Shown here: positions 6,983 through 9,996 of the stretch, piece after piece | How the letters are laid out: every line of letters starts with the position of its first letter | Position numbering within the stretch: the stretch's first letter is position 1 | NCBI GenBank assembly: GCA_030649055.1 | Contig: JAUSGH010000003.1 | Location: 354 to 64,353 of the forward strand | DNA from: a bacterium | GTDB taxonomy: Bacteria > Patescibacteriota > Minisyncoccia > UBA6257 > JAUSGH01 | Direction: 5' to 3' | DNA: 64,000 bases | Program-made: the position numbers and the translations under genes | Notes under the pieces: generated by a model | Database searches by the model: none | What the model was told of the DNA's origin: nothing | Seen by the model: only the letters and a program-made list of their open reading frames with translations

Positions 6983-7645
6983 TTACTTGCGAGGCGGGGT
7001 GAAAAACGGTTCGAGCGTGGCGTAATCCTCAAGCGACAGCGCGCCGCAGTCGCGGAGGAATTGCAGGCTCCGGAGGTATCTCGCGTCGTGCTTGTCTACA
7101 AGGTTTGTGTCGACATACCACGCGCGCCCGCCGAACGAACATCGTTCCAGCGCCCACGCAACCCACTCAGCGAAGTTTTCGTAGTAGTCCGTCGCTCCGT
7201 AGTCGGTGATGATGCCGTCGCGCGGAAAAGAACCGGAACGATCACCGTAAGCCTCTTTACTGATACTCCCCCAATCTGCGCGCTTCCACGCAGGCAATGC
7301 GTAAAAGAACGCGTGCGCCGCCTCATGCCAGACCGTCCACTTGTCGAGATAGTCCGGATAAACGCAGATGAAACGCGTCCACCAGCGGCAATGCCCGGCC
7401 TCCAGCACGTTACCGTACTTGTCCTTCGCGTAGCTCGGACAATCCGAAGTAATCCGAATCGTAGTCACGGTCGCTTGTGCCTGCGGACTCATACGATGGA
7501 TAGCGGCAACAACCAGCGAACGTTCAGCGGGTGTGCCGAACTCAACAAACTTGCCTCGTTCAATCCGCTCCCACGAAACGCGCGGGGCGGTGCAACCCGC
7601 GACGGCAAACAAGACAGCAAAAAACCATAGCGCATTCGCTTTCAT
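6983..7645 (-). CDS. putative secreted HExxH zinc metallopeptidase-like lipoprotein, paralog 1
   Basis: Signal peptide plus lipobox (VAGC); WHEAAHAFF; downstream YGATDYYENFAEWV glutamate; start chosen at MKANALW with gaggag SD (the ORF track start at 7735 is likely too long). Confidence 0.7.
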   Translation of the reverse strand: MKANALWFFAVLFAVAGCTAPRVSWERIERGKFVEFGTPAERSLVVAAIHRMSPQAQATVTTIRITSDCPSYAKDKYGNVLEAGHCRWWTRFICVYPDYLDKWTVWHEAAHAFFYALPAWKRADWGSISKEAYGDRSGSFPRDGIITDYGATDYYENFAEWVAWALERCSFGGRAWYVDTNLVDKHDARYLRSLQFLRDCGALSLEDYATLEPFFTPPRK

Positions 7646-7759
7646 GACAAATCTCCTCAAGAACACCAGCACTACACATAAGTCTACGCCCGCGGCAATC
7701 CCAGTCAACACGCAAAAAACAATTTGCCCCCGCACCGGTAAAGATGCGGGGGCAAGACT

Positions 7760-8476
7760 CTATTTCACAGGAACTCCATTTACGCGCAGCGTAAACAGCG
7801 GTTCCAGCTCATCGTATTGCGCCTGACTGATTGCACCCCAGTCGCGAAGCACTTCCAAGTGCTTGAGATAGCTGGGATCCGTGACGTCAATCACGCGCAT
7901 GTCCACGAATATTGAGCCCATCGGCTCATCGTGGAGGCGGCACATCGCCCAGCGCACCCATTCGGCAAAGTCCTCCCACGGATTTGTCGCCCCGTACCAG
8001 GTGAGAATGCCGTTCCGTGGAAAGTCTCCTTCCATGTCGCCGTACGCATTCATGCTGATTCTCGTCAACCTCTCCTGTTCCTCGGCAGACTGCGTCATCA
8101 TGAGCGCGTGTCCGGACTCATGCCAGACATTACCATGAGAGACATAGGAAGGACGAACACAGATGTCGCGCGTCCCGGGATGAGTGTGCGCCGCTTCCCG
8201 CCAATTACCGTCCTTGTCCCGGGGTTTGTAATCGGGGCAGTCATTGGTGATTTGAATGGAGCGCACCGCCCGCTGCACTGGCTCTTCGAGCCAATTCATC
8301 GCCTCACGAGCGCGCTCACGCTGGTCGCGCGTGCCGCCATAAACGAACGAATCGTCCCAAGCGCCAAGACGGGGCGGCGCCGTCGTGCACCCGAACGGTG
8401 CCACGAACAACGTAAGAGTCGCCGCAACAAACACGGCACGCCTCAGAACATCGCTCACCATCGCTAAACCTCCCAA
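7760..8476 (-). CDS. putative secreted HExxH metallopeptidase-like lipoprotein, paralog 2
   Basis: VWHESGHALM; YGATNPWEDFAEWV; signal peptide with Cys. Confidence 0.7.
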   Translation of the reverse strand: MGGLAMVSDVLRRAVFVAATLTLFVAPFGCTTAPPRLGAWDDSFVYGGTRDQRERAREAMNWLEEPVQRAVRSIQITNDCPDYKPRDKDGNWREAAHTHPGTRDICVRPSYVSHGNVWHESGHALMMTQSAEEQERLTRISMNAYGDMEGDFPRNGILTWYGATNPWEDFAEWVRWAMCRLHDEPMGSIFVDMRVIDVTDPSYLKHLEVLRDWGAISQAQYDELEPLFTLRVNGVPVK

Positions 8477-8570
8477 AGAATACCTGCGTAACTAAAAAAT
8501 ATAATAGCGCGAATGCACATGAAATACAAGGAGGCATCCCGTGAGACGCCTCCCTTGCTCCAACTTATCA

Positions 8571-9230
8571 TTACTCCGCGAACAGCGGTTGCACGCGACG
8601 GAACTCTTCCTCTGTAAGCACGTCGTGAGCGCGGAAGAATGTAAGAATCGCGAGATATACCGGGTCTCTCCGATCAATCGAGGCGATGTCCGCTCTGCCG
8701 TACCCGGACCCGTATCCGCGAAGATAGTGCGTGAGCCACGTCACCCACTCCGCGTAATTCTCGCGCGGGTTCGTGCCGCCATAAGACGTAATCATGCCGC
8801 GTGAAGGATATGCTCCGGGAATGACGATGTTGATGCCTTCCCCATGAAAAAGGTCGTCATCAACAAACCCTTCCCATTGTTCTTGCGCCGCGCGCGAGAG
8901 CGTATGGAAATGTGTATGCGCGGGTTCGTGCCAGACAACCGCGCGCGTCACGCGCCCCTCCCGGACACAGATCGGTCCGCCCCGATGATGAAACCCGACG
9001 ATAAACCGTGAGGTGAATCCGCTGCAATCGTTTGTGATGCGGATTTCCTCGGCGACTTCCCGCACCACTCTCGGAAGCTCACCGAGCGCCGCGCGCGCGA
9101 ACTCGCGTTCCTCCGCAGTTCCTCCGGAAATGAGATCACCGAGCGCCGCCTCTGTGCGCGGCGGATGATTGGTACAGGATACGCAGATGCCGACGACAAA
9201 CATCGCTGCACACAGCGTGATGTGTCTCAT
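8571..9230 (-). CDS. putative secreted HExxH metallopeptidase-like lipoprotein, paralog 3
   Basis: VVWHEPAHTHF; YGGTNPRENYAEWV; signal peptide. Confidence 0.7.
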   Translation of the reverse strand: MRHITLCAAMFVVGICVSCTNHPPRTEAALGDLISGGTAEEREFARAALGELPRVVREVAEEIRITNDCSGFTSRFIVGFHHRGGPICVREGRVTRAVVWHEPAHTHFHTLSRAAQEQWEGFVDDDLFHGEGINIVIPGAYPSRGMITSYGGTNPRENYAEWVTWLTHYLRGYGSGYGRADIASIDRRDPVYLAILTFFRAHDVLTEEEFRRVQPLFAE

Positions 9231-9258
9231 TCAAGTACTCCTCAAAAGGCCTCTCGCT

Positions 9259-9996
9259 TCAGTGTATGCCGGCCAAAGCTGAAGTCAATAATAAGCAAAT
9301 CACCCTCCCGCCGGTTGAGGCAGTGAGGGTGAAGAGCGGTGCAAGCTTCGTGTATTCCTCCGGCGTGATGACTCCGAATTTGCGGAGTAGCTTCAGGTGC
9401 CGGATGTAGCGGGTATCCGACTTGTCGATTTTTTTCAGATTGACACTTGTGCGGCCGGTAGGAGTGCGATGCTGGTAGCACATCACGAACTCCACCCACT
9501 CGGCGAAGTCCTCGTGGGCATTTGTCGCGCCGTACGAGGTCAAAATCCCGTCGCGCGGGAACTCGCCTTCCATGTTCCCGTAGGCGTTTTTGCTGACGAC
9601 CGCCCACTTGTTGTTCTCGCGCCATGACCGCGACATGAGGAGCGCATGCCCCGCCTCATGCCAAACGACGCGATCGTAAACGTAATCGGTGTGGATGCAG
9701 ACATTCCGCGTCAAGTGGCAATGAGCGGACTCCTGCCAATCCCCGTCCTCATCCTTCGGATCGTAGGCCTCACAGGTGTCGTTGATGGTGACGGAAACCA
9801 CAGCGTTCTGTGGCTTCTCCTCCAACAGCGCCAGCGCGTTGCGAACACTCTCCCGATCCCCGCTTATGCCGCCGGAGACAGGAATGTCGGCGAGAACCGT
9901 GGCGCGCTGCGCCGCCGGCGTATCCCCGAACGGCGAAGCAACAAGCAGAAAAAGCACCGCAACCAACGCGGCGCGCCGGAACATCTTGGACATCAC
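9259..9996 (-). CDS. putative secreted HExxH metallopeptidase-like protein, paralog 4
   Basis: VVWHEAGHALLM; YGATNAHEDFAEWV; signal peptide with no lipobox Cys. Confidence 0.7.
   Translation of the reverse strand: MMSKMFRRAALVAVLFLLVASPFGDTPAAQRATVLADIPVSGGISGDRESVRNALALLEEKPQNAVVSVTINDTCEAYDPKDEDGDWQESAHCHLTRNVCIHTDYVYDRVVWHEAGHALLMSRSWRENNKWAVVSKNAYGNMEGEFPRDGILTSYGATNAHEDFAEWVEFVMCYQHRTPTGRTSVNLKKIDKSDTRYIRHLKLLRKFGVITPEEYTKLAPLFTLTASTGGRVICLLLTSALAGIH

Follow-up and report, generated by a model that had tools for sequence, protein, structure and literature searches.

Four consecutive minus-strand genes in a 64,000-nucleotide stretch of the Patescibacteriota contig JAUSGH010000003.1 (assembly GCA_030649055.1; the whole stretch is called the window below) form a tandem array between the genes for an H+-translocating pyrophosphatase (PPase) and trigger factor (tig). 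We consider that these genes, named here par1 to par4, quite probably encode gluzincin-type zinc metallopeptidases that act outside the cytoplasm and consist of a single domain, and which would be exported, mostly anchored to lipid, encoded in an array of variable copy number, and active on extracellular or surface proteins and peptides. Sequence comparisons and structural models support their assignment to a previously undescribed group of exported gluzincin metallopeptidases that borders on Peptidase_Mx1, with a predicted active site like those of anthrax lethal factor and of Zmp1 from C. difficile. An earlier note on this DNA had described a secreted, gluzincin-like HExxH family at this place; the invariance of the motif, its alignment to lethal factor and to the PDB entries 4L7A and 9URD, and the zincin fold predicted by AlphaFold2 (AF2) are all in line with that description.

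The array comprises four co-oriented open reading frames (ORFs) on the minus strand, at 6983..7735, 7760..8476, 8571..9230, and 9259..9996. The earlier note had placed the feature at 6983 to 9996; the reading frames are indeed there, but these outer limits are those of maximal ORFs and not of genes. Reading of the DNA identifies ATG starts at 7645, 8461, 9230, and 9993 for par1 to par4, each preceded at 5-9 nt by a Shine-Dalgarno-like GGAGG element, and we retain these starts because of the ribosome-binding sites and the NCBI gene models, whose protein sizes are the same (Table 1). All four NCBI models (Q7R85_00820 to Q7R85_00835) are annotated 'hypothetical protein'. The proteins align end to end with pairwise identities of 28-46%, and the weakest pair, par1 and par3, still reaches a BLASTP E-value of 1e-25, confirming that the four genes are divergent tandem paralogs. 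The scaffold quoted for them earlier, ITNDC...HCH...IC...VWHExxH followed by FPRDGI.T.YGATN..EDFAEWV and YL..L..LR..G.I...EY..L.PLF, is likewise present, with modifications in par3, the most divergent copy, where the loop DGNW.EAAH ahead of the HH motif is shortened and a 7-residue insertion precedes the P..G..T.YG block.

Conservation outside the catalytic core is uneven. The cysteines C74 and C99 (par4 numbering; ITNDC and ICV/ICI) are invariant in an alignment of the close family (A2) and lie on neighboring predicted strands. The H-C-H block between them is conserved in the wider family but varies across the paralogs, reading HCR in par1, HTH in par2, HH in par3, and HCH in par4. This region might contain a disulfide or else bind a second metal ion. 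At the C-terminus, par2 ends in a conserved tail, FTLRVNGVPVK, which its orthologs carry as FTLRVNG(V/A)P(V/L)K. The additional tail of par4, FTLTASTGGRVIC, extends beyond the family domain (window 9259..9330, minus strand; about 9740..9800 in locus L001) and is common to the two known orthologs; the region encoding it overlaps sequence upstream of par3.

An exhaustive HMMER profile search of 1.84 billion protein cluster representatives returned 226 representatives at E<=1e-3 and 134 at E<=1e-10, nearly all of them 200-260 aa long. A word-indexed protein search was less informative, yielding 10 relatives at first and 13 matches when run with the 119-sequence profile. In the databases checked, family members carry only 'hypothetical' or 'uncharacterized' names, with no precomputed Pfam domain on any of them. 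Conservation was analyzed on 158 fetched representatives and on an alignment of 119 sequences, using the residue numbers of par2. The HExxH motif is found in all but one of the representatives (157/158), and its residues H114, E115, and H118 occupy the sole invariant columns of the alignment, followed by W132, G151, Y156, E163, D164, and A166, each conserved at >=90%. All four paralogs keep both HExxH and the downstream Tyr-x6-Glu (Y156, E163). In the par2 model, HExxH falls within a predicted helix (109-122) and Glu163 within another (161-176). This glutamate, from WEDFAEW, is the candidate third zinc ligand already proposed in the earlier note, although not at the distance of about 30 aa given there: it lies 45 residues past the second His, and it is the FPR motif that starts about 30 residues past it. 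We interpret HExxH as a catalytic motif, not as a chance match, because its columns are invariant, because in the profile alignments it falls on the active sites in 4L7A, 9URD, and lethal factor, and because the AF2 models show a zincin fold. Judged from sequence and model, the proteins thus have what characterizes gluzincin clan MA(E), namely HExxH on a helix, a glutamate on a downstream helix, and the zincin fold.

Searches with existing family models place the paralogs at the edge of known metallopeptidases. PF15890 (Peptidase_Mx1) scores 19.8 bits with par4 and 11.1 bits with par2, relative to a cutoff of 25.6, and does not match par1 or par3; TIGR04549 scores 17.6 bits with par4 (cutoff 75), and the other sub-threshold matches of the window proteins are to Peptidase_Mx and M90. 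Across the family, PF15890 matches 35 of the 119 members at E<0.01, with a best E-value of 4.6e-8. When compared with PDB sequences, the family profile aligns to 4L7A, the Bacteroides caccae protein BACCAC_01431 ('putative zinc-binding metallo-peptidase'), with E=1.5e-7 and a span of about 100 residues that begins at HExxH and reaches the C-terminal helices, and to 9URD, a 'substrate import-associated zinc metallohydrolase lipoprotein' (E=8e-5). Lethal factor chains give E-values of 0.043-1.1, the value of 0.043 being that of fragment 2L0R, in which HEFGH...LTSYGRTNEAEFFAE aligns to HExxH...LtsYgstnyeEDiAe; with the Pfam model ATLF, the window paralogs give no match even at E<=10.

The structural models point in the same direction. 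AF2 generated a model of par2 from 119 sequences with a pLDDT of 92.2 and a pTM of 0.84, and one of par4 from 11 sequences with a pLDDT of 80.5. In Foldseek searches of the PDB, the top matches were lethal factor (probability 0.97-0.99) and 4L7A (0.96-0.98), with Zmp1 at 0.92 for the first model. Zincins also account for most of the other matches in the upper part of the list, and further down, at low probability, came many more (ERAP1, selecase, deuterolysin, IrrE, collagenase), mixed with unrelated folds. Selecase, ImmA/IrrE, M48, and the astacins resemble the window proteins in their overall zincin fold and in the HExxH helix but rank low in the searches. Astacins have a third histidine in the motif HExxHxxGxxH, which is absent here. 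The M48-like, ImmA/IrrE, and minigluzincin families, named as possible kin in the earlier note, were rejected as nearest relatives: they give no Pfam match, and the Foldseek probabilities are 0.12 for IrrE, at most 0.25 for selecase, and 0.07 for the M48-like 3C37.

The resemblance to Peptidase_Mx1/TIGR04549 covers lipoprotein-type HExxH proteins of similar core size and a shared block running from HExxH through G.(L/V)T.Y(G/A)....EDIAE to the C-terminal helix, whereas the N-terminal half of the window proteins, with the ITNDC, HCH, and IC block, does not align. TIGR04549 proteins of Bacteroidota take their name from an association with TonB-dependent SusC/SusD import loci. The window genes, in contrast, adjoin housekeeping genes; TIGR04549 would require at least 75 bits and SusC/SusD-type neighbors, whereas par4 scores 17.6 bits and the neighbors are PPase, tig, clpP, and nusA, or dnaG and rpoD. 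The likeness to M34 (lethal factor, Zmp1/PPEP-1) consists in the best structural matches and in HExxH followed by Y-x6-E. Lethal factor binds zinc with His686, His690, and Glu735 and uses Tyr728; its 45-residue His-to-Glu spacing and its Y-x6-E spacing are identical to those of the family, and the SYGRTNEAE/NEAEFFAE block of the toxin aligns to L-T-x-Y-G-x-T-N-x-x-E-D-x-A-E, with Glu163 opposite Glu735. Lethal factor is a multidomain toxin, and the PPEPs are secreted as soluble enzymes, with the genes for their substrates lying adjacent; unlike these M34 members, the window genes encode a predicted lipid anchor and have no candidate substrate gene nearby. For membership of M34/ATLF, the Y-x6-E arrangement is present but a significant match to a sequence model is not. 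Zmp1 is a secreted zinc protease of about 220 aa in which E143 and H146 are essential (PMC3841139), and the window proteins resemble it as putative small exported single-domain enzymes. On these sequence and model comparisons, the nearest relatives are Peptidase_Mx1/TIGR04549 and the M34 catalytic domain, with Zmp1 as the nearest characterized enzyme.

Export signals were assessed by inspection and hydropathy. The par1 protein begins with the signal peptide MKANALWFFAVLFAVAG directly before the lipobox Cys (...FAVAGC, with VAG ahead of the Cys), while the N-termini of par2 and par3 read ...LFVAPFGC and ...VVGICVSC. In these three, the signal peptide ends in a lipobox with Cys at position +1; par4 differs in having a hydrophobic signal peptide with Asp in place of that Cys (...LLVASPFGD). 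This agrees with the three lipobox-like cysteines and one plain signal peptide noted earlier. The par4 orthologs in L001 and P0283 also have no lipobox Cys, with Asp or Asn at that position. Among the family representatives, 89/158 show a hydrophobic stretch followed by a [GAS]C lipobox and 47/158 a hydrophobic N-terminal segment without that Cys, so that one or the other is present in 136/158; the remaining 22 show neither signal, some of them evidently being fragments.

Members of the family occur in a conserved chromosomal slot, PPase-array-tig-clpP-(tyrS), in about nine distinct loci with 1-5 domains each (Table 1), counting the repeat retrievals L001/L002, L007/L015, and L010/L011/L019 once. 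The trigger factors of these loci are 43-92% identical to that of the window, which is closest to the one in L001 (92%), followed by Candidatus Harrisonbacteria (71%) and then by metagenome-assembled genomes (MAGs) of the 'Patescibacteria/Parcubacteria group'. This ranking places the organism near Harrisonbacteria within the candidate phyla radiation. Each of the four paralogs has an ortholog in L001, in the same order. In L007 and L008, a single lipoprotein results from in-frame fusion of the first two domains of the array, and since the second domain has no signal peptide, we regard these fusions as genuine and not as assembly artefacts. Elsewhere, single or paired members adjoin dnaG-rpoD, ddl, UPF0102, or unrelated genes. 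Of the co-varying neighbors looked for in related genomes, PPase and tig-clpP alone recur; no recurrent transporter, candidate substrate, or regulator stands beside family members among the loci examined. A functional link to tig-clpP was considered and not adopted: the array has promoter-like sites and terminators of its own, and other members lie elsewhere. A defence-system reading was dropped when PADLOC models gave no matches. In L001, a restriction-modification gene of MmeI type (919 aa) is inserted, together with four small genes lacking annotation (4388..8997), between PPase and the array, where the gap in the window is only 125 bp.

A hand-made degenerate DNA pattern, WHExxH...EDxAEW, scanned over 185,579 GTDB species genomes, detected nine true loci of the candidate phyla radiation (CPR); two further matches, one in Roseibium and one in a deltaproteobacterium, were due to chance, as the family hidden Markov model (HMM) did not accept them; a GTDB scan with alignment A2 gave no confirmed relative. 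The true members belong to Harrisonbacteria and to TPA bins labelled 'uncultured Candidatus Saccharibacteria'. This label looks generic, because one such bin corresponds to L007, with its Harrisonbacteria-like synteny. As far as sampled here, the family appears restricted to CPR, and all members that could be placed are from Patescibacteria MAGs near Harrisonbacteria.

The ratio of nonsynonymous to synonymous substitution rates (dN/dS) was calculated for ortholog pairs rather than for paralogs, because the synonymous sites of the latter are saturated at their level of identity. Between the window and L001, par1 to par4 are 48-75% identical in amino acid sequence with rough dN/dS values of 0.16-0.31, compared to 92-98% identity and 0.01-0.07 for Tig, PPase, and ClpP. 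The par genes are under purifying selection while evolving, as a rough estimate, 5-10 times faster than their neighbors. In a neighbor-joining tree, the orthologous groups of the window clade have bootstrap values of 96-100% for par1, 88% for par2, and 100% for both par3 and par4, and the four paralogs of this clade cluster together against the L007 and L008 copies (98%). This suggests a lineage-specific duplication, with the limits that deeper nodes are without support and that a composition bias is possible, the GC content of the array being 58% vs 43-47% in L007/L008.

Promoter-like sites and hairpins around the genes (Table 1), identified from consensus matches and reading of the sequence, make the array look like three transcription units, par4-par3, par2, and par1. 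The gap of 28 bp between par4 and par3 has no hairpin.

In the mechanism we propose, the proteins would first be exported by their N-terminal Sec signal peptides. The par1 to par3 products would then be lipidated at the Cys+1 of the lipobox and held at the outer face of the cytoplasmic membrane, while par4, having lost this Cys, may be released or may remain at the surface through an uncleaved signal anchor or by binding to a paralog. The mature enzymes would comprise about 195-220 residues with one gluzincin domain each. Zinc would be held by His114 and His118 of HExxH and by Glu163, with Glu115 as the general base activating the water molecule and Tyr156, seven residues before Glu163, stabilizing the transition state or oxyanion, an arrangement like that in anthrax lethal factor and C. 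difficile Zmp1/PPEP-1. Differences in the loops by the active site would confer different specificities. Different extracellular or surface substrates are most likely, because the catalytic residues are kept while the loops differ and the genes evolve several-fold faster than their neighbors. An auxotrophic cell could use such enzymes to scavenge nutrients; other possible uses are the processing of surface proteins of the cell itself and action on those of a host. The cell-envelope or host-interaction role that the earlier note had attached to the array would fit its fast evolution and variable copy number.

Several observations weigh against this interpretation. All matches of the four window paralogs to Pfam and NCBIfam models stay below the curated thresholds, and the Foldseek TM-scores are only 0.33-0.40, with no E-value <=1e-3. 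Two of the lipoboxes, PFGC in par2 and CVSC in par3, depart from the typical form, and the ORFs with Pfam annotation in the 64-kb window include neither Lgt nor LspA. The ortholog dS of 0.75-1.8 is near saturation, which makes the dN/dS values rough. The neighboring housekeeping genes give no clue to a substrate. The literature on Mx1/TIGR04549 and on CPR surface metalloproteases yielded no functional evidence of protease activity, nor was experimental evidence for such activity found for any family member; one paper (PMC13194787) discusses lipoproteins of the actinobacterial host and not of the CPR cell.

Among other explanations, the same proteins could be zinc hydrolases of the cell's own envelope, for example trimming peptidoglycan stem peptides or another envelope polymer, with the array as a cell-wall remodelling set. 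The window does encode PBP2, MreB, MreC, and MurA, a D-Ala-D-Ala ligase lies near members in L001, L003, and L017, and a LysM-M23 peptidase near the single copy in L009; moreover, the catalytic apparatus alone cannot separate a protein from a peptide-stem substrate. Nevertheless, we consider this explanation improbable: only PPase and tig-clpP recur, and no cell-wall neighbor is consistently adjacent; lethal factor and Zmp1, the closest structural kin with a known function, cleave proteins as endopeptidases; the searches showed no likeness to the peptidoglycan metallopeptidase families M15, M23, and M74; and divergence 5-10 times faster than that of neighboring genes, or a copy number ranging from one to five, would be unexpected for essential wall enzymes. 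Equally unlikely, in our view, is an obligate hetero-oligomeric surface protease specific to Harrisonbacteria-like CPR, with the paralogs as its subunits, processing host proteins in episymbiosis. In such a complex, the non-lipidated par4 would be held by the co-transcribed lipoprotein par3, and the fusions in L007 and L008 would be its fused counterpart.

Fast evolution, variable copy number, and two-domain fusions are also common in binding and adhesion families, and no biochemical demonstration of activity was found for any Mx1-family relative, so that the zincin scaffold might serve only to bind ligands or partners at the surface. For such pseudo-proteases to keep the full H-E-x-x-H, Tyr, and Glu set in all four paralogs and nearly all representatives would be very surprising; because these catalytic columns are the most conserved, we favor active enzymes over pseudoenzymes. 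That the proteins stay in the cytoplasm as regulators or repair proteases with an HExxH motif (ImmA/IrrE-, SprT-, or M48-like), their hydrophobic N-termini being start-codon artefacts, as weak SprT-like matches of 7/119 members (best E=2.5e-4) and the presence of IrrE and MATCAP far down the Foldseek list (probability <=0.12) might hint, is scarcely credible given ribosome-binding sites that fix starts including the signal peptides, the conservation of the lipobox-position Cys across the family, the absence of a helix-turn-helix partner gene, and the lack of any M48 or ImmA match even at E<=10.

Table 1. Features of the array and its flanks in the window, and family domains in the PPase-tig slot of related loci (coordinates refer to the window unless a locus is named).
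Feature	Coordinates	Strand	Description
H+-translocating PPase gene	10122..12161	minus	flanks the array on the par4 side
Long hairpin with T-run	about 10101..10071	minus	ends the PPase gene, directly ahead of the promoter-like site of par4
Promoter-like site TTGGTA-17-TAAAAT	10015..10043	minus	upstream of par4; consensus scan only
par4	9259..9993	minus	244-aa HExxH protein; AGGAGGG ribosome-binding site; Q7R85_00835
par4 motifs	HEAGH 9660..9646; Glu 9513..9511	minus	
par3	8571..9230	minus	219-aa lipoprotein-type HExxH protein; Q7R85_00830
par3 motifs	HEPAH 8930..8916; Glu 8762..8760	minus	family HMM E=4.2e-49
Hairpin with weak T tail	8528..8555	minus	after par3; likely end of the par4-par3 unit
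par2	7760..8461	minus	233-aa lipoprotein-type HExxH protein; GGGAGG ribosome-binding site; Q7R85_00825 (100% identity)
par2 motifs	HESGH 8122..8108; Glu163 7975..7973	minus	family HMM E=2.4e-61
Strong intrinsic-terminator-like hairpin	7724..7755	minus	after par2; 13 pairs, then TTGTTTTTT
Promoter-like site TTGACT-16-TAGACT	7708..7681	minus	before par1; consensus scan only
par1	6983..7645	minus	220-aa lipoprotein-type HExxH protein; GAGGAG ribosome-binding site; Q7R85_00820
par1 motifs	HEAAH 7327..7313; third-ligand candidate Glu 7180..7178	minus	family HMM E=1.7e-56
tig (trigger factor gene)	5682..6932	minus	flanks the array on the par1 side
L001/L002			four genes in the slot, order par4-par3-par2-par1 as in the window
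L003			at least two family domains
L007 (= L015)	L007 3685..4986 (fusion)		four family domains; a 433-aa protein combines the first two
L008	L008 8001..9353 (fusion)		five family domains, two fused in a 450-aa protein
L013			three family domains
L018			two family domains
L023			four family domains
L010/L011/L019 (named Harrisonbacteria)			one family domain

The remainder of the window is ordinary core chromosome, encoding TyrRS, ClpP, Tig, PPase, NusA, TIM, PBP2, two MreB proteins, MreC, and MurA, together with an RseP-like M50 protease, RRF, RNase J, several aminoacyl-tRNA synthetases, ClpB, IF-3, and tmRNA. The two MreB paralogs are full-length and about 6 kb apart (20872..21915 and 27584..28594, minus strand), the first beside MreC and PBP2. 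A 1179-aa IleRS-like class I aminoacyl-tRNA synthetase (41559..45098, minus strand; tRNA-synt_1, Anticodon_1, and DUF5915) carries an unusual insertion: its catalytic domain is interrupted at residues 512-681 by a complete histidine-phosphatase domain (PF00300, E=6e-34). Plus-strand ORFs without a Pfam match form two blocks, 36400..40200 and 47800..50100, which interrupt this otherwise minus-strand housekeeping region, the first with a higher GC content (0.56-0.58) and a reversed GC skew. A 194-aa PaaX_M/Cas2-like protein (40343..40927, minus strand; E=1.9e-13), similar to one in L009, is encoded with no CRISPR array noticed nearby.

CPR/Patescibacteria have tiny genomes with a large share of 'hypothetical' genes, and hardly anything is known of how their surface takes up nutrients or deals with a host. 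Through this analysis, four genes of this kind and some 226 related sequence clusters acquire a testable identity as putative lipid-anchored gluzincin peptidases with a lethal-factor-like site. The analysis delimits a family not captured by present Pfam and NCBIfam models, links it to the uncharacterised Mx1/TIGR04549 lipoproteins of Bacteroidota, and describes a fast-evolving array with variable copy number at a conserved locus. The gain is incremental, a new family in a well-known enzyme clan and not a new mechanism, but it should aid the annotation of CPR genomes and offers a lead into their surface biology.

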